Virus record (IMG/VR): IMGVR_UViG_2703718856_000005
Length of the DNA: 51,466 nt
Source: a virus
Taxonomy: Duplodnaviria; Heunggongvirae; Uroviricota; Caudoviricetes
Strand: one strand, 5' to 3'
In this document: piece by piece, positions 39,825-51,466 of the stretch
Layout: the number at the start of each line of letters is the position of its first letter
Numbering within the stretch: the stretch's first letter is position 1
Notes under the pieces: generated by a model
The model's database searches: none
What the model saw: only the letters and a program-made list of their open reading frames with translations
Told to the model about the DNA's origin: nothing
Made by a program: the position numbers and the translations under genes

Positions 39825-40250
39825 ATGGAATTACAGGACTGGCGAAAAGAACCTCGTAAAAACTATTCGAATGAATTCAAACTTCGTATGGTGGAACTGG
39901 CATCACAACCTGGAGCTTGTGTTGCACAGATTGCACGTGAAAATGGCGTCAATGATAATGTTATTTTCAAATGGCTCAGGCTCTGGCAGAACGAAGGGCG
40001 TGTTTCGCGGCGTCTTCCGGTAACGACCTCTTCTGACACTGGCGTTGAATTATTACCTGTAGAAATAACGCCGGATGAGCAGAAAGAACCTGTGGCGGCC
40101 ATTGCGCCGTCTTTATCCACTTCCACTCAGACCAGAGTCAGTGCCAGTTCCTGCAAGGTGGAATTCCGTCACGGTAACATGACGCTGGAAAATCCATCGC
40201 CAGAGCTGCTCACAGTGTTGATCCGTGAACTGACCGGGAGGGGAAGATGA
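39825..40250 (+). CDS. tnpA: IS66-family accessory protein TnpA (orf1)
   Basis: 141 aa with helix-turn-helix, first ORF of the element. Confidence 0.85.
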   Translation: MELQDWRKEPRKNYSNEFKLRMVELASQPGACVAQIARENGVNDNVIFKWLRLWQNEGRVSRRLPVTTSSDTGVELLPVEITPDEQKEPVAAIAPSLSTSTQTRVSASSCKVEFRHGNMTLENPSPELLTVLIRELTGRGR

Positions 40251-40597
40251 TCTCACTCCCATCAGGTACCCGTATCTGGCTCGTTGCCGGCGTTACCGAT
40301 ATGCGTAAATCCTTCAACGGACTGGGAGAACAGGTACAACATGTGCTGAATGATAATCCCTTCTCCGGTCACCTGTTTATCTTCCGTGGCCGACGGGGTG
40401 ACACCGTCAAAATTCTTTGGGCTGATGCTGATGGTCTGTGCCTGTTCACCAAACGCCTGGAGGAAGGCCAGTTTATCTGGCCTGCGGTACGTGACGGCAA
40501 GGTATCCATTACCCGCTCGCAACTGGCAATGCTCCTCGATAAGCTGGACTGGCGTCAGCCAAAAACATCCAGCCGTAACTCACTGACAATGTTGTAA
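40247..40597 (+). CDS. tnpB: IS66-family TnpB (orf2)
   Basis: 116 aa; start overlaps the tnpA stop. Confidence 0.9.
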   Translation: MISLPSGTRIWLVAGVTDMRKSFNGLGEQVQHVLNDNPFSGHLFIFRGRRGDTVKILWADADGLCLFTKRLEEGQFIWPAVRDGKVSITRSQLAMLLDKLDWRQPKTSSRNSLTML

Positions 40598-40627
40598 AAA
40601 ACTCCTGACCGCATTATAAAAACGGTC

Positions 40628-42241
40628 ATGAGTCAGAAATACCTCATTCGCATCGCAGAGCTGGAAAGGTTGCTCTCTGAGCAGGCTGAAGCCCTCCGTC
40701 AGAAAGACCAGCAACTGAGTCTGGTTGAAGAGACGGAAGCCTTCCTGCGCTCTGCACTGACACGTGTCGAAGAAAAGATCGAAGAAGATGAACGGGAAAT
40801 AGAACATCTGCGGGCTCAGATAGAAAAACTGCGCCGGATGCTGTTCGGTACCCGTTCTGAAAAACTGCGTCGTGAAGTTGAACTGGCTGAGGCTCTGCTG
40901 AAACAACGTGAACAGGACAGCGATCGTTACAGTGGGCGGGAAGACGATCCTCAGGTTCCCCGCCAGTTGCGACAGTCGCGCCATCGTCGTCCGTTACCGG
41001 CACACCTTCCCCGTGAAATACACCGCCTGGAGCCAGAAGAAAGCTGTTGCCCGGAGTGTGGCGGTGAGCTGGATTATCTGGGGGAAGTCAGCGCTGAACA
41101 GCTGGAACTGGTGAGCAGTGCCCTGAAAGTGATCCGCACAGAACGGGTAAAAAAAGCCTGTACAAAATGTGACTGTATTGTTGAAGCACCGGCGCCGTCC
41201 CGCCCGGTAGAGCGTGGTATCGCGGGCCCCGGATTACTTGCCCGCGTGTTAACGGGAAAATACTGCGAACATCTGCCACTGTATCGTCAGAGTGAAATCT
41301 TTGCCCGCCAGGGTGTCGAACTGAGCCGGGCCTTACTCTCCAACTGGGTTGACGCGTGCTGCCAGTTAATGACACCGGTGAATGATGCCCTGTACCGTTA
41401 TGTAATGAACACCCGCAAGGTTCACACTGATGACACACCGGTAAAGGTACTGGCACCGGGTCAGAAAAAGGCGAAAACAGGGCGTATCTGGACGTATGTC
41501 CGGGATGATCGCAATGTGGGTTCGTCATCTCCTCCAGCGGTCTGGTTCGCGTACTCGCCGAACCGGCAGGGGAAACACCCGGAGCAACACCTCCGCCCCT
41601 TCCGGGGTATCCTGCAGGCGGATGCGTTCACAGGTTACGACAGGTTGTTCAGTGCAGAACGTGAAGGTGGTGCACTGACAGAAGTTGCGTGCTGGGCCCA
41701 TGCCCGGCGAAAAATCCACGATGTATACATCAGCAGCAAAAGTGCGACGGCAGAAGAAGCCCTGAAGCGAATCAGTGAACTGTACGCCATCGAGGATGAA
41801 ATACGGGGATTACCGGAGTCAGAGCGTCTTGCCGTCAGGCAGCAGCGAAGCAAAGTGTTACTGACGTCGCTGCATGAATGGATGGTGGAGAAGAATGGTA
41901 CGCTGTCGAAAAAATCCAGACTGGGCGAAGCGTTCAGCTATGTACTGAATCAGTGGGATGCCCTCTGTTATTACAGTGATGACGGTCTGGCGGAGGCGGA
42001 TAATAATGCTGCGGAAAGAGCGCTTCGTGCAGTCTGTCTCGGAAAGAAAAACTTTATGTTCTTTGGCAGCGATCACGGCGGCGAGCGTGGAGCACTGTTG
42101 TACGGGCTGATCGGCACCTGCCGTCTGAACGGTATCGATCCGGAAGCGTATCTGCGCCATATCCTGAGCGTACTGCCGGAATGGCCTTCCAACCGAGTTG
42201 ATGAACTCCTGCCATGGAACGTAGTACTCACCAATAAATAA
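40628..42241 (+). CDS. tnpC: IS66-family transposase TnpC (orf3)
   Basis: 537 aa; N-terminal coiled coil, CxxC zinc motifs, DDE-type core. Confidence 0.9.
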   Translation: MSQKYLIRIAELERLLSEQAEALRQKDQQLSLVEETEAFLRSALTRVEEKIEEDEREIEHLRAQIEKLRRMLFGTRSEKLRREVELAEALLKQREQDSDRYSGREDDPQVPRQLRQSRHRRPLPAHLPREIHRLEPEESCCPECGGELDYLGEVSAEQLELVSSALKVIRTERVKKACTKCDCIVEAPAPSRPVERGIAGPGLLARVLTGKYCEHLPLYRQSEIFARQGVELSRALLSNWVDACCQLMTPVNDALYRYVMNTRKVHTDDTPVKVLAPGQKKAKTGRIWTYVRDDRNVGSSSPPAVWFAYSPNRQGKHPEQHLRPFRGILQADAFTGYDRLFSAEREGGALTEVACWAHARRKIHDVYISSKSATAEEALKRISELYAIEDEIRGLPESERLAVRQQRSKVLLTSLHEWMVEKNGTLSKKSRLGEAFSYVLNQWDALCYYSDDGLAEADNNAAERALRAVCLGKKNFMFFGSDHGGERGALLYGLIGTCRLNGIDPEAYLRHILSVLPEWPSNRVDELLPWNVVLTNK

Positions 42242-45619: not shown

Positions 45620-45785
45620 CATCATCAATGAGTTATCTTTTACCACATCAATTATGTTAGCTATAGCATACAAAATCACTTGACCGATATGTTAGTCATG
45701 GCTAATCTTGTTTGCATCAACACACCGCACGGTGTTCTCAGCAAACAGTTCCGCTACCCCAGCGTTAAGGGGAAATGAGGTCAGC

Positions 45786-46659: not shown

Positions 46660-46717
46660 TTTCTGGTGACGTTTGGCGGTATCAGTTTTACTCCGTGACT
46701 GCTCTGCCGCCCTTTTT
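46660..46717 (+). ncRNA. dicF: DicF small RNA (ftsZ-targeting, Hfq-dependent), with its intrinsic terminator
   Basis: TTTCTGGTGACGTTTGGCGGTATCAGTTTTACTCCGTGACTGCTCTGCCGCCCTTTTT matches the recalled DicF sequence; sits between ydfC and dicB. Confidence 0.7.
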
Positions 46718-46886: not shown

Positions 46887-47075
46887 ATGAAAACGTTATT
46901 ACCAAACGTTAATACGTCTGAAGGTTGTTTTGAAATTGGTGTCACTATCAGTAACCCAGTATTTACTGAAGATGCCATTAACAAGAGAAAACAAGAACGG
47001 GAGCTATTAAATAAAATATGCATTGTTTCAATGCTGGCTCGTTTACGTCTGATGCCAAAAGGATGTGCACAATGA
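46887..47075 (+). CDS. dicB: DicB cell division inhibitor (62 aa)
   Basis: MKTLLPNVNTSEGCFEIGVTISNPVF from the internal ATG at 46887. Confidence 0.85.
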   Translation: MKTLLPNVNTSEGCFEIGVTISNPVFTEDAINKRKQERELLNKICIVSMLARLRLMPKGCAQ

Positions 47076-47263
47076 ATTCAGCATTTGTGCTTGTTCTGAC
47101 AGTTTTTCTTGTTTCCGGAGAGCCAGTTGATATTGCAGTCAGTGTTCACAGGACAATGCAGGAGTGTATGACTGCAGCAACCGAACAGAAAATTCCCGGT
47201 AACTGTTACCCGGTCGATAAAGTTATTCACCAGGATAATATCGAAATCCCGGCAGGTCTTTAA
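47072..47263 (+). CDS. ydfD: YdfD-like small membrane protein (63 aa)
   Basis: MNSAFVLVLTVFLVSGEPVDIAVSVHRT; ATGA overlap with the dicB stop. Confidence 0.8.
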   Translation: MNSAFVLVLTVFLVSGEPVDIAVSVHRTMQECMTAATEQKIPGNCYPVDKVIHQDNIEIPAGL

Positions 47264-47319
47264 AACAGTTCCGTAATAAATATCCGGTTTCATTCTTATA
47301 TGCCAGCAATGGCAGGGAT

Positions 47320-48045
47320 TTGTTCATCCTTAAATCTGTCATGAGGTTAAAACAAATGAGTAAAGTCTTTATTTGCGCCGCTATTCCTGACGAACTGGCA
47401 ACAAGGGAAGAAGGCGCTGTGGCTGTAGCCACAGCCATTGAAGCTGGCGACGAACGCCGTGCTCGAGCAAAATTTCACTGGCAATTCCTGGAACATTATC
47501 CGGCTGCTCAGGACTGCGCTTATAAATTTATTGTCTGCGAGGATAAACCTGGCATACCCCGCCCTGCCCTCGATTCATGGGATGCTGAATATATGCAGGA
47601 AAACCGCTGGGATGAGGAGTCTGCTTCTTTTGTCCCGGTTGAGACTGAATCCGATCCGATGAACGTCACTTTTGACAAGCTGGCCCCTGAAGTACAGAAC
47701 GCTGTCATGGTTAAGTTCGACACATGTGAAAACATCACCGTTGATATGGTTATTAGCGCACAGGAATTGTTGCAGGAAGACATGGCAACATTCGACGGAC
47801 ATATCGTTGAAGCGTTGATGAAAATGCCAGAAGTTAACGCCATGTATCCGGAGCTTAAGTTGCACGCCATTGGGTGGGTTAAGCATAAATGTATTCCTGG
47901 TGCTAAATGGCCCGAAATTCAGGCAGAGATGCGCATCTGGAAAAAACGTCGCGAAGGTGAACGCAAGGAAACCGGAAAATACACGTCTGTTGTTGATCTC
48001 GCCCGCGCCAGAGCCAATCAACAGTACACTGAAAATTCAACATGA
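47320..48045 (+). CDS. ydfE: YdfE-like protein, apparently full length (about 229 to 241 aa)
   Basis: ORF following ydfD; the K-12 counterpart is recalled as a fragment. Confidence 0.5.
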   Translation: MFILKSVMRLKQMSKVFICAAIPDELATREEGAVAVATAIEAGDERRARAKFHWQFLEHYPAAQDCAYKFIVCEDKPGIPRPALDSWDAEYMQENRWDEESASFVPVETESDPMNVTFDKLAPEVQNAVMVKFDTCENITVDMVISAQELLQEDMATFDGHIVEALMKMPEVNAMYPELKLHAIGWVKHKCIPGAKWPEIQAEMRIWKKRREGERKETGKYTSVVDLARARANQQYTENST

Positions 48046-48141
48046 AAAATCAGCCCGGTCATTGCTGCCATTCATCGCGAATACAAGCAGACATGGAAAA
48101 CACTGGATGACGAACTGGCCTACGCTCTCTGGCCTAGTGAT

Positions 48142-49827
48142 GTGGATGCCGGAAACATTGACGGCAGCATCCATCGCTGGGCAAAAAAAGAAGTTATCGA
48201 CAACGACCGCGAAGACTGGAAGCGTATCTCGGCATCAATGCGCAAACAGCCTGATGCCCTTCGCTACGACCGCCAAACTATTTTTGGCCTTGTCCGTGAG
48301 CGTCCGATCGACATTCACAAAGATCCCGTAGCACTGAACAAATATATCTGCGAATACCTGACGACAAAGGGCGTGTTTGAGAATGAAGAAACAGACCTGG
48401 GCACTGTTGATGTTCTCCAGTCATCAGAAACACAAACTGATGCAGTGGAAACTGAGGTATCTGATATCCCAAAAAATGAAACCGCGCCGGAAGCTGAACC
48501 ATCTGTAGAGCGTGAGGGGCCGTTCTATTTCCTCTTCGCAGATAAGGACGGAGAAAAATACGGTCGCGCAAACAAACTCTCTGGTCTGGATAAGGCACTG
48601 GCTGCTGGCGCCACTGAAATCACAAAAGAAGAATATTTTGCCCGAAAAAATGGCACATACACGGGCTTACCGCAAAATGTAGATACCGCTGAAGATTCAG
48701 AACAACCAGAGCCGATAAAAGTTACCGCTGACGAAGTAAACAAAATTATGCAGGCAGCCAATATCAGCCAGCCTGACGCCGATAAGTTGCTTGCTGCATC
48801 ACGTGGTGAATTTGTTGAAGGGATTAGTGACCCGAATGATCCGAAATGGGTTAAGGGGCTCCAGACCCGCGATTCTGTGAACCAGAACCAGCATGAATCG
48901 GAACGGAACTACCAAAAAGCGGAACAAAACAGTCCAAATGCGTTACAAAACGAGCCAGAAACGAAACAGCCTGAACCAGTAGCGCAACAGGAAGTGGAAA
49001 AAGTCTGCACCGCCTGCGGTCAGACCGGCGGCGGCAACTGCCCTGATTGTGGCGCGGTGATGGGCGACGCAACATACCAAGAAACATTCGATGAAGAGTA
49101 TCAGGTTGAAGTTCAGGAAGATGATCCGGAGGAAATGGAAGGCGCTGAACATCCACACAAGGAGAACACTGGCGGCAATCAGCATCACAATAGCGATAAT
49201 GAAACTGGCGAGACGGCAGATCACCCAATTAAGGTGAACGGTCATCACGAAATCACATCCACCAGCAGGACGTGTGACCATCTAATGATCGACCTTGAAA
49301 CCATGGGAAAAAATCCTGATGCCCCGATCATCTCAATAGGTGCAATATTTTTCGATCCGCAAACCGGAGATATGGGACCGGAATTTAGTAAGACTATCGA
49401 TCTGGAAACTGCTGGCGGAGTCATTGATCGGGACACCATTAAATGGTGGCTTAAGCAATCACGCGAAGCGCAATCTGCCATTATGACCGATGAAATCCCG
49501 TTAGATGATGCACTGTTACAATTGCGAGAATTTATCGACGAAAACTCCGGTGAATTTTTTGTTCAGGTTTGGGGAAATGGAGCCAACTTCGACAACACGA
49601 TTTTGCGCCGTTCATACGAACGGCAGGGGATCCCCTGCCCGTGGCGTTACTACAACGATCGCGATGTACGCACAATCGTTGAGCTGGGGAAAGCCATAGA
49701 CTTCGATGCCAGAACGGCTATTCCATTCGAAGGTGAGCGCCATAATGCACTTGATGACGCCCGTTACCAGGCAAAATACGTTTCAGTTATCTGGCAAAAA
49801 CTGATCCCGAGTCAGGCTGATTCTTAA
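48142..49827 (+). CDS. multidomain protein: acidic N-terminal region, central CxxC...CxxC zinc ribbon, C-terminal DnaQ-like DEDDh 3'-5' exonuclease domain (GTG start in track)
   Basis: Exonuclease motifs MIDLETMG, WGNGANFD and HNALDDARYQ; zinc ribbon CTACGQTGGGNCPDCG. Confidence 0.7.
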   Translation: MDAGNIDGSIHRWAKKEVIDNDREDWKRISASMRKQPDALRYDRQTIFGLVRERPIDIHKDPVALNKYICEYLTTKGVFENEETDLGTVDVLQSSETQTDAVETEVSDIPKNETAPEAEPSVEREGPFYFLFADKDGEKYGRANKLSGLDKALAAGATEITKEEYFARKNGTYTGLPQNVDTAEDSEQPEPIKVTADEVNKIMQAANISQPDADKLLAASRGEFVEGISDPNDPKWVKGLQTRDSVNQNQHESERNYQKAEQNSPNALQNEPETKQPEPVAQQEVEKVCTACGQTGGGNCPDCGAVMGDATYQETFDEEYQVEVQEDDPEEMEGAEHPHKENTGGNQHHNSDNETGETADHPIKVNGHHEITSTSRTCDHLMIDLETMGKNPDAPIISIGAIFFDPQTGDMGPEFSKTIDLETAGGVIDRDTIKWWLKQSREAQSAIMTDEIPLDDALLQLREFIDENSGEFFVQVWGNGANFDNTILRRSYERQGIPCPWRYYNDRDVRTIVELGKAIDFDARTAIPFEGERHNALDDARYQAKYVSVIWQKLIPSQADS

Positions 49828-49899
49828 TGTTCAACTGTCGCCGGTTGTGACTGGTATTCTGCAACCGGCGCTCGTCTGATGTAAGAGATAAAGAAATCG

Positions 49900-50151
49900 A
49901 TGAGCGAAGTAATCATGATTGTCTCTCCCGGCAAATGGGTATCCGAAGAGCAGTTAATTGCGCTGAAAGGAATAAAAAAAGGTACGTTAAAAAAGGCCCG
50001 GGAAAAATCGTTTATGGAAGGAAGGGAATATAAGCATGTCGCTCATGACGGTATGCCATGGGATAACAGTCCATGCTTTTACAACCTGGAAGAAATTGAT
50101 CGCTGGATTGAGCGCCAGGCATCAGCGAGACCAAGACGTCATCTTACTTGA
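49900..50151 (+). CDS. xis: putative excisionase
   Basis: 83 aa ORF immediately upstream of the integrase. Confidence 0.5.
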   Translation: MSEVIMIVSPGKWVSEEQLIALKGIKKGTLKKAREKSFMEGREYKHVAHDGMPWDNSPCFYNLEEIDRWIERQASARPRRHLT

Positions 50152-50170
50152 CTAAAAGCCACACTAACTA

Positions 50171-51466
50171 ATGAGAGAAGTTGAAATGAAATATCCGACA
50201 GGCGTGGAAAACCATGGAGGGAAATTACGTATCTGGTTTGTTTATAAAGACGTAAGAGTCAGGGAAAATCTGGGGGTTCCTGACACAGCAAAAAACAGGC
50301 GCGTTGCAGGTGAACTACGCTCCTCTGTTTGTTACGCAATAAAAACTGGTGTTTTCGACTATGCAAAACAGTTTCCCTCCTCACGCAATCTGGAAAAATT
50401 TGGTGAGGCCCGACAAGATTTAACCATAAAAGAACTGGCTGAAAAATTTCTGGCACTGAAAGAAACTGAAGTCGCCAAAACATCACTCAACACATACCGT
50501 GCCGTCATCAAAAATATCCTGAGCATAATCGGTGAAAAAAATCTTGCCTCATCGATTAATAAAGAAAAATTACTGGAGGTTCGTAAAGAGTTACTGACTG
50601 GATACCAGATCCCCAAAAGTAACTATATTGTTACACAACCAGGGAGATCGGCTGTAACTGTAAATAATTACATGACAAATCTTAACGCCGTGTTCCAGTT
50701 TGGTGTTGATAACGGTTACCTGGCAGATAATCCGTTTAAGGGGATCTCGCCATTAAAGGAATCAAGAACCATTCCGGATCCTCTTTCGCGGGAAGAATTT
50801 ATCCGTCTTATCGATGCGTGCAGAAATCAGCAAGCAAAAAATTTATGGTGTGTTTCTGTTTATACTGGAGTTCGCCCTGGTGAGCTGTGTGCACTTGGAT
50901 GGGAGGACATAGATCTGAAAAATGGAACAATGATGATCAGGAGAAATTTAGCAAAAGACCGTTTCACGGTACCAAAAACACAGGCGGGAACCAATCGGGT
51001 CATTCATCTTATTAAGCCAGCAATCGACGCTCTCCGGAGTCAGATGACATTAACGAGACTGAGCAAAGAGCATATCATTGATGTTCACCTCAGAGAGTAT
51101 GGCAGAACAGAAAAACAAAAATGCACCTTTGTTTTTCAACCTGAAGTGTCAGCGAGAGTAAAAAATTATGGTGACCATTTTACCGTTGACTCAATAAGGC
51201 AGATGTGGGACGCAGCGATAAAACGTGCCGGACTCCGCCATCGAAAATCATATCAGTCGAGACATACTTATGCCTGCTGGTCGCTGACAGCTGGTGCTAA
51301 CCCGGCATTTATAGCAAACCAGATGGGCCATGCAGATGCGCAAATGGTATTTCAGGTATACGGAAAATGGATGTCTGAAAACAATAATGCACAGGTAGCT
51401 TTGTTAAATACACAGTTAAGCGAGTTTGCCCCAACCATGCCCCATAACGAAGCAATGAAAAATTAA
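50171..51466 (+). CDS. int: tyrosine site-specific integrase, apparently intact
   Basis: 431 aa; catalytic-domain residues including HxxR and terminal tyrosine context (RHTYACW, VFQVYGKW); stop codon is the last three bases of the window. Confidence 0.9.
   Translation: MREVEMKYPTGVENHGGKLRIWFVYKDVRVRENLGVPDTAKNRRVAGELRSSVCYAIKTGVFDYAKQFPSSRNLEKFGEARQDLTIKELAEKFLALKETEVAKTSLNTYRAVIKNILSIIGEKNLASSINKEKLLEVRKELLTGYQIPKSNYIVTQPGRSAVTVNNYMTNLNAVFQFGVDNGYLADNPFKGISPLKESRTIPDPLSREEFIRLIDACRNQQAKNLWCVSVYTGVRPGELCALGWEDIDLKNGTMMIRRNLAKDRFTVPKTQAGTNRVIHLIKPAIDALRSQMTLTRLSKEHIIDVHLREYGRTEKQKCTFVFQPEVSARVKNYGDHFTVDSIRQMWDAAIKRAGLRHRKSYQSRHTYACWSLTAGANPAFIANQMGHADAQMVFQVYGKWMSENNNAQVALLNTQLSEFAPTMPHNEAMKN

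Follow-up and report, generated by a model that had tools for sequence, protein, structure and literature searches.

A question raised by the virus record IMGVR_UViG_2703718856_000005 (IMG/VR; 51,466 nucleotides (nt), a stretch referred to hereafter, in its whole length, as the window) concerns the gene(s) occupying the place where a lambdoid prophage would be expected to keep its recombination functions. At its right end, the window carries the early-left (dicBF) operon of a lambdoid prophage resembling Qin/mEp460, and a previous inspection of the letters alone (hereafter the sequence-only reading) described in its recombination slot a pair of genes, one coding for an unrecognised protein of 241 amino acids (aa) and the other for a 561-aa zinc-ribbon exonuclease, which might do something other than recombination. 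How many genes are there at this locus, what does the intact product look like, and what might a 3'-5' exonuclease do in such a position? The two open reading frames (ORFs) are indeed present in a mechanical ORF list, at 47320-48045 and 48142-49827; however, the analyses reported below indicate that they almost certainly represent a single gene broken by a nonsense codon, the intact form of which appears to encode a RecE-type scaffold ending in a 3'-5' nuclease domain.

One Gene Split by a Premature Stop

The two ORFs lie in the same frame, and the sole stop codon between them is the TGA at 48043-48045. The comparison with Escherichia coli cq9 over 47000-50200 revealed a single difference, at base 48043 (T in the window, G in cq9), and the cq9 equivalent is a single annotated coding sequence (CDS) of 823 aa, named "exonuclease" (WP_000048342.1) and corresponding to window 47356-49827. 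Moreover, the PHROG 2082 profile (823 positions) matched the reconstructed protein in one continuous stretch, from 1 to 822, with 1827 bits, and in the phages Tritos and mEp460_ev081, too, the annotation is that of a single gene. The common frame, the single stop, the single CDS of cq9, and the uninterrupted PHROG match therefore leave very little doubt that we are dealing with one gene carrying a nonsense codon at position 230 (GGA to TGA). It is a known and widely annotated prophage gene, and its copy in the window is a pseudogene.

The translation start is likely the ATG at 47356 rather than the TTG at 47320; the RefSeq start of WP_000048342.1 is the ATG equivalent to 47356, which in the window is preceded by a Shine-Dalgarno sequence (Table 1). 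With this start, the 5' fragment is 229 aa long. No Shine-Dalgarno sequence was found before GTG 48142, the first start-like codon past the stop, or before the first in-frame ATG, at 48238, and an independent translation of the 561-aa ORF was for this reason judged unlikely. Since the catalytic part does not possess its own ribosome-binding site, an N-terminal fragment of 229 aa is the most that would be expected from this copy.

The idea that the locus harbors two separate genes, whose 241-aa and 561-aa products would work as a pair, receives next to no credence from us and is rejected on the basis of the shared frame, the single stop, and the identity with cq9 at all bases but one. It can appeal to the mechanical listing of two ORFs and to the fact that, should the stop be genuine, a YdfE_N fragment of 229 aa could be made; in addition to the single CDS of cq9, Tritos, and mEp460_ev081 and to the downstream starts devoid of a Shine-Dalgarno sequence, it has against it that the 61-mer centred on the stop differs in 3051 complete genomes and that the stop falls within a segment of low confidence joining two domains that belong to one protein family, as seen in the AlphaFold2 (AF2) models and in PHROG. 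As for the single-gene reading, the G-to-T change at base 48043 would be either a very recent casualty, as the gene bears no second lesion, or a base-calling error.

Distribution of the Gene and Its Decay

The counts given in this section refer to a set of 5426 complete E. coli genomes. The exonuclease gene was matched in 4806 of them, with at least 80% query coverage in 3382, and at a median of two places per genome. The 61-mer found a match in 3051 of the 5426 genomes and was identical to the window in none of these 3051; the best matches listed are 98.4% identical, i.e., they have one mismatch, and the matches include the K-12 copy, which covers the position of the premature stop. The K-12 ydfE gene is commonly described as a remnant truncated by an insertion sequence (IS). 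The gene is intact in the deposited phage genomes PhiR42_1, HannyBb, Tritos, mEp460_ev081, and Evi.

The look-up of the exact 229-aa product returned many contigs, nearly all of which are wild-type and end at that codon, their ending at codon 230 being a selection effect of an exact-product look-up. The look-up of the downstream 529-aa product returned other broken copies (by deletion, IS, or frameshift), none with TGA at codon 230. Different lesions of the same gene were also observed in individual loci: a frameshift in PPompW_EH1846 (L031, 6058-8525), a split into 291 + 529 aa (L053), IS elements upstream (L051 and L052), and, in L048 and L050, what looks like a deletion, the upstream genes being missing.

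When intact alleles were compared with the mEp460 one, the ratio of nonsynonymous to synonymous substitutions (dN/dS) took values of 0.07 (YdfE_N), 0.12 (YdfE_C), 0.15 (DEDDh domain), and 0.53 (linker, 438-640), which show that the folded domains of the intact alleles are under purifying selection. The picture that emerges from these comparisons is that of a functional phage gene that repeatedly decays in resident prophages.

Domain Architecture of the Intact Protein

The 823-aa protein is very probably composed, from the N- to the C-terminus, of YdfE_N, YdfE_C, an acidic zinc-ribbon linker, and a DEDDh domain (Table 1). The full-length AF2 model, built from 42 sequences, contains three confident units (1-206, 245-343, and 385-435), separated and followed by long stretches of low confidence, and a second model limited to aa 1-344 has a predicted local distance difference test (pLDDT) score of 82 and agrees with the full-length one. 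YdfE_N is modelled as a mixed alpha/beta and then helical fold. The region 245-343 is common to RecE-type proteins, BLASTP aligning it to RecE from aa 278, while the small domain at 385-435 consists of three strands (390-396, 399-405, and 420-422) and two helices (408-416 and 424-431). The families PF27430 (YdfE_N) and PF27432 (YdfE_C) postdate the local copy of Pfam, with which nothing was matched in that region, and their names are taken from the precomputed Pfam matches.

These matches are in agreement with the sequence-only reading as far as the ydfE-like nature of the upstream ORF is concerned; the same ORF is not, however, an unrecognised protein, as that reading had it, being the 5' fragment of the exonuclease gene and a member of the YdfE_N/YdfE_C family. 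An annealing protein (RecT, Red-beta, Erf, Sak, or Rad52) was also considered as a candidate identity for the 241-aa ORF and was rejected, as the ORF matched no Pfam family at E ≤ 0.01 and gave no PADLOC match; in PHROG, its matches carry the labels exonuclease or unknown.

The zinc ribbon and the acidic region noticed previously are both confirmed. The former has the form CxxC-x7-CxxC (C551, C554, C562, and C565; CTACGQTGGGNCPDCG, window 49006-49050), and Asp and Glu make up 26-29% of the residues in two stretches, 344-384 and 567-640.

A RecE-Type Scaffold and Its Relatives

The comparison with K-12 RecE places this protein within a recombination context. Indeed, aa 262-627 aligned with RecE 278-592 (39% identity over 366 aa, E 2e-61, BLASTP), a span that includes YdfE_C; this homology had escaped the sequence-only reading. 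Within it, aa 472-627 are near-identical to K-12 RecE, including DKLLAASRGEFVxGISDPNDPKWVKG, the zinc ribbon, and the acidic tail, and the linker DNA and recE share 78% identity over 443 nt. The NCBIfam RecE equivalog model NF007259 matched aa 246-623 through its positions 271-600 only (E 1.3e-83; 281.6 bits versus a cut-off of 1269). The PD-(D/E)XK nuclease domain of RecE was not found: the BLASTP alignment ends at RecE 592 and nothing matches 593-866, so that the homology stops where the RecE nuclease domain starts. A phmmer search with this nuclease domain matched other relatives and not the DEDDh lineage. Judged from these alignments, the protein is a RecE-type scaffold bearing a 3'-5' nuclease in place of the 5'-3' one. 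According to a review (PMC11611040), the function of the part of RecE that precedes the nuclease domain is unknown.

A HMMER scan with aa 1-229 against 1.84 billion representatives retrieved 87 proteins at E ≤ 0.001. The long relatives among them retain YdfE_N and usually the middle domain, while their C-terminal ends vary; these are of the DEDDh type, of the RecE nuclease type (three representatives), a conserved domain of about 180 aa (15 proteins), or a fourth, differing C-terminus. A combination of another kind is found in P0128, which has the DEDDh end and a RecE-type PF06630 N-terminus and whose gene lies between KilR and an integrase, with no annealing-protein gene.

The ~180-aa domain had Rad52_Rad22 as its top Pfam match in 11 of the 15 members, with a best E of 0.0023 that falls short of the curated cut-off, and its alignment with human RAD52 is colinear but weak (hhalign E 0.017, probability 2.7%). 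When the relatives having this end served as queries for profile searches of the PDB, nothing significant was returned. The Rad52-like identity of this domain is hence offered as a lead and not as a result. The gene of one such member has a weak Gam-like match on one side and Sipho_Gp157/Exc/Int on the other, and its operon codes for no further annealing protein; stand-alone copies of the domain are known from Pseudomonas and Vibrio phages, and it is fused in Pectobacterium phage ZF40 (JQ177065.1, 2987-3544).

Proteins without a nuclease domain called "RecE-2" are mentioned by Zheng et al. (Genome Res 2025; PMC12315714), and the 15 Rad52-like-ended proteins may correspond to them. In that case, these proteins could supply the annealing function that is missing from phages such as ZF40. 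The database label for these 15 proteins (P0123, P0127, P0129, P0135, P0152, P0163, P0179, P0187-P0189, P0193, P0195, P0197, P0204, and P0205; one locus is L032, 5650-7986) is "exonuclease", and the consensus of their ~180-aa domain is TDPRFTK..GTSIN..MRATEiFGP.G.GWG...KKSLTDAiKKALS.LGFSADV.

The fusion of the same N-terminal domains to a RecE-type nuclease or to a probable Rad52-like domain argues that the scaffold belongs to DNA recombination modules. On this basis we can speculate, with a good deal of doubt, that the RecE-type N-terminal region might be a general delivery platform in the recombination modules of temperate phages, able to carry interchangeable effectors acting at DNA ends. 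The platform would consist of YdfE_N or the RecE N-domain, followed by YdfE_C and by the conserved zinc-ribbon linker; the effectors would be the 5'-3' nuclease (in RecE), the 3'-5' DEDDh nuclease, the probable Rad52-like domain (15 of the 87 proteins), and the fourth domain. If this idea was correct, then the DEDDh version would be the hallmark of a phage strategy of its own, the trimming of 3' tails leaving to the host RecBCD/Chi system the recombination that the phage needs, and a hint would be obtained at the function of the N-terminal two-thirds of RecE.

The Catalytic Domain and Its Possible Substrate

The C-terminal domain matched PF16473 over profile positions 2-177 of 177, with E values from 1.5e-67 to 2.4e-67 and 226.5 bits versus a cut-off of 27; a weaker Pfam match, to RNase_T, was also obtained. 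The five catalytic residues, including the acidic ones, are all present, namely D646 and E648 (IDLET), D746 (ANFD), and H796 and D801 (H-x4-D), so that the DnaQ-like domain of the sequence-only reading holds with an intact active site. The two findings named in advance as fatal to that reading, an annealing-protein match of the 241-aa ORF and a loss of the acidic catalytic residues, were thus not obtained. Among proteins that have been assayed, T4 DexA (PDB 8kel) gave a phmmer match with E 1.5e-6, its D7, E9, and D119 aligning with D646, E648, and D746. A closer match is an EcD-like protein of 189 aa, 38% identical to aa 644-816 (E 3e-34), in which the H-x4-D motif is aligned and which is also matched by PF16473. 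This protein was recovered by means of the published forward primer for EcD; it starts with MIDTET, has Ala78, and at its 3' end matches the reverse primer except for one base.

The EcD-like gene was observed in the early region of a P2-like prophage (L025, 5679-6248; also in L007, L012, L022, L023, and L028), where its neighbours are Cox-like, repressor, integrase, Dam-type methyltransferase, and ParE-like toxin domain genes. As this gene is EcD or a very close relative, the anti-T4 nuclease published as "bacterial" probably belongs to a prophage too.

The structure of DexA has been described by Kang et al. (NAR 2025; PMC12153337), who reported that DexA and EcD are DNA exonucleases ("HREX"), that EcD digests the 5-hydroxymethylcytosine (5hmC) DNA of T4, leaves unmodified DNA intact, and shields E. 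coli against T4, and that DexA homologues are commonest in Escherichia. In the same work, 5hmC recognition was assigned to Trp152 and Asp169 of DexA, and the loss of Asp90 (Ala78 in EcD) leads to a dimer-only state. It is worth considering that our protein might be an anti-phage nuclease of the HREX/EcD kind, active in superinfection against the 5hmC-type DNA of T-even phages, with the N-terminal part serving for control or targeting. Besides the similarity of the catalytic domain to the EcD-like protein and the abundance of DexA homologues in Escherichia, this idea might draw on DicB, which is encoded by the same operon and is reported to protect against some phages. However, dicA represses the dicB operon in the quiescent lysogen, and the exonuclease gene, standing at the far end of this operon, should not be expressed there. 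Moreover, the position of DexA Trp152 is occupied by Tyr in the protein studied here, and that of Asp90 by Asp (Ala in EcD), so that neither the trait linked to 5hmC selectivity nor the one linked to the dimer-only state is reproduced; around Asp169 the alignment is not a confident one. Lastly, EcD is a stand-alone protein and not a RecE-type fusion, and PADLOC returned a generic DEDDh match only. Altogether, we consider an anti-phage role of this kind unlikely.

Even less probable, in our opinion, is that the enzyme is an exoribonuclease, one that would, for example, mature or turn over DicF or the long transcript of the early-left operon, or break down host RNA. The best Pfam family is named "3'-5' exoribonuclease Rv2179c-like", there is the RNase_T match, and DicF lies ~650 nt upstream in one transcription unit. 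Nevertheless, the closest assayed relatives, DexA and EcD, are DNases, the scaffold is common to RecE and to probable annealing proteins, and the Pfam name carries little weight, DEDDh enzymes often taking both nucleic acids. From the DNase activity of the closest relatives with assays, and from a scaffold that recombination proteins have in common with this one, we infer that the substrate of the catalytic domain is DNA. A literature search on ydfE, on the dicB-ydfD exonuclease, and on PF16473/DUF5051 found no functional study.

Recombination Module and Chi Sites

The gene stands where the Rac prophage has recE-recT, in agreement with the lambda-type recombination slot assigned to it by the sequence-only reading. 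The absence of a partner annealing protein noticed in that reading is also borne out: the early-left operon contains no RecT, Erf, Sak, or Red-beta gene and, from dicA to the exonuclease gene, no plus-strand ORF of at least 100 aa, while the annotation of the homologous prophage of cq9 lists no annealing protein, single-stranded DNA-binding protein (SSB), or anti-RecBCD gene, these absences being based on annotation and Pfam, with the small ORFs ydfA, ydfB, and ydfC having no assigned function. As to the suggestion that the supposed pair does something other than recombination, the part concerning a nuclease of the wrong polarity stands, while a lack of relation to the recombination module is contradicted by the homology with RecE.

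The survey of 325 lambdoid genomes by Zheng et al. (PMC12315714) lists DnaQ-like nucleases among the Rec modules, as well as a "Tritos" class that has a nuclease, lacks an annealing protein, an SSB, and an anti-RecBCD protein, and is rich in Chi sites, with a range from 7/2 to 21/6 (top/other strand). Tritos itself carries the exonuclease gene (TRITO_27), with 99.1% nucleotide identity over a 3.2-kb query consisting of the gene and its flanks. In the window, five Chi sites (GCTGGTGG) lie on the strand that corresponds to the lambda top strand and two on the opposite one, 0.59 being expected per strand on the basis of base composition.

Proposed Role and Points Against It

The role that we favour, albeit tentatively and as something short of probable, is the trimming of DNA ends. 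Since the early-left operon is repressed by DicA, the protein would be made on prophage induction and not in a quiet lysogen. The scaffold would then bring the nuclease to DNA ends, where 3' single-stranded tails would be removed; the flush ends so formed would allow the loading of the host RecBCD and, in turn, the recombination-dependent growth proposed for Tritos-type phages. In E. coli, 3' tails restrain the reloading of the helicase at double-strand ends, a constraint relieved by 3'-5' single-strand exonucleases (PMC5592934). Trimming would also fit the RecBCD/Chi-dependent lifestyle proposed for the class, which has neither an annealing protein nor a RecBCD inhibitor and has extra Chi sites. 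A second possible use of the exonuclease activity would be the degradation of host or competitor DNA, as done by DexA. Taken as a whole, i.e., blending the split gene, the architecture, and the trimming, we regard the explanation as moderately probable.

Some points weigh against this explanation. An error of sequencing or assembly could account for the stop codon, and the only public contigs with T (Logan) end no more than 6 nt from it and do not settle whether the allele is real. Besides, Zheng et al. (PMC12315714) note that 3'-5' exonucleases usually inhibit recombination, and the Chi enrichment of the window is modest, falling just below the published range; it is possible that a decaying prophage drifts to the Chi density of its host. 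In the AF2 model, the catalytic domain and the zinc ribbon came with low confidence, a result due to the shallow alignment at the C-terminus (few homologues) and speaking neither for nor against. The fold searches with the N-terminal domains were uninformative (Foldseek against BFVD returned nothing at E ≤ 0.001), which leaves the targeting role of the scaffold without direct support. Finally, we infer both which nucleic acid the enzyme attacks, DNA or RNA, and what it does for the phage.

For the window itself, the result is a correction: what had been taken for an unusual gene pair is a prophage gene that is very common and that has decayed in this copy. It is the intact protein, and not this locus, that deserves interest. 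Its gene is present near full length in ~60% of complete E. coli genomes, with folded domains under purifying selection, and fills the recombination slot in a lambdoid class devoid of an annealing protein. The role of a 3'-5' exonuclease in that slot, if known, would bear on how phages without recombination functions of their own use RecBCD/Chi and also on the purpose of the N-terminal two-thirds of RecE.

Genomic Setting

The genes of the operon are arranged in the order dicC (minus strand), dicA, ydfA, ydfB, ydfC, DicF, dicB, ydfD, exonuclease gene, xis, and int. The exonuclease gene thus forms the terminal part of the dicA-controlled operon, with dicB/ydfD on one side and xis/int on the other. 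The closest complete genome, that of E. coli cq9, has an identical gene order adjoining rspB/rspA, and the two prophages share ~98-100% identity across the whole window, one inserted element excepted. At positions 45677, 46646, and 46775 of the dicBF operon, which are intergenic or flank the small RNA (one being 15 nt 5' of DicF), the window has C where cq9 has A, T, and A, respectively. The small RNA DicF is annotated in the Tritos record, and the cq9 RefSeq table has no feature there.

The inserted element is a complete IS66-family one that interrupts the replication/nin region of the prophage, a region in which cq9 differs, including a remnant of an ISNCY transposase. This insertion is a further sign of decay in the window prophage. 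The coordinates of all the features are reported in Table 1.

Table 1. Features of the window, with their coordinates, strands, and supporting evidence.
Feature	Position	Strand	Evidence and remarks
Shine-Dalgarno sequence GAGG	47343..47346	+	9 nt 5' of ATG 47356; read from sequence
5' fragment of the exonuclease gene (codons 1-229 and premature TGA)	47356..48045	+	Encodes YdfE_N
Premature stop, TGA replacing GGA (Gly230)	48043..48045	+	Sole difference from cq9 in 47000-50200
3' remainder of the exonuclease gene (codons 231-823 and natural stop)	48046..49827	+	In frame; without a ribosome-binding site of its own
YdfE_N, aa 1-206	47356-47973	+	AF2 pLDDT ~90; PF27430, precomputed Pfam match for the exact 229-aa product
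Helical domain, aa 245-343, probably the YdfE_C region	48088..48384	+	AF2 pLDDT ~90; PF27432, precomputed match
Small beta/alpha domain, aa 385-435 (GPFYFLFADKDGEKYGRANK...)	48508..48660	+	AF2 pLDDT 81-89
RecE-like linker, aa 472-627	48769..49236	+	Motif DKLLAASRGEFVEGISDPNDPKWVKG, zinc ribbon, acidic tail; mostly disordered in AF2
DEDDh (DnaQ-like) 3'-5' exonuclease domain, aa 642-813	49279..49794	+	PF16473 (Rv2179c-like); D646, E648, D746, H796, D801
Chi sites	29569, 34136, 34193, 42325, 49259	-	Motif count; 49259 within the exonuclease gene
Chi sites	33551, 33603	+	Motif count
DicF small RNA	46661..46712	+	Rfam RF00039, full-length match, 76.7 bits, E 4e-16
dicB	46887-47075	+	Pfam DicB, E 1e-39; RefSeq annotation of the homologous locus
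ydfD	47072-47263	+	Pfam DUF1482, E 8e-26; directly 5' of the exonuclease gene; RefSeq annotation of the homologous locus
Excisionase	49900-50151	+	Pfam DUF1233, E 1.6e-31; directly 3' of the exonuclease gene; RefSeq annotation
Integrase	50171 to window end (51466)	+	RefSeq annotation; after the excisionase
IS66-family element, complete	39825-42241	+	ORFs HTH_Tnp_1 (141 aa), TnpB_IS66 (116 aa), DDE_Tnp_IS66 (537 aa)

Comparison with Known Systems

The first term of comparison is RecE of the Rac prophage, whose gene occupies the equal slot in the early-left operon and which shares with the protein described here the zinc ribbon and the DKLLAASRGEF..PKWVKG motif. The two differ at both ends: RecE carries a 5'-3' PD-(D/E)XK nuclease (about 564/606-866) where the exonuclease gene has a DEDDh 3'-5' domain, and the RecE N-terminus is found where YdfE_N stands in our protein. 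Moreover, in Rac, recT follows recE, whereas here xis and int come directly after the exonuclease gene and no recT is present.

DexA and EcD, in turn, belong to the same DEDDh fold family as the C-terminal domain, with the catalytic residues conserved; they are, however, stand-alone proteins of 227 and 189 aa, respectively, while in our case the DEDDh domain ends an 823-aa RecE-like protein.

The closest systems are the prophages and phages carrying the gene itself. In Tritos, mEp460, and cq9, its neighbours are those of the window (dicB, ydfD, exonuclease gene, xis, and int); in mEp460 and CP-933P it is annotated as "exodeoxyribonuclease", and ydfE of the K-12 Qin prophage is an N-terminal remnant. 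The window prophage is itself decayed, as revealed by the IS66 insertion and the nonsense codon. Neither a domain analysis of this protein nor a function for it is given by Zheng et al. (PMC12315714). Like the Tritos class, the window has a nuclease with no recognised annealing, SSB, or anti-RecBCD gene beside it.

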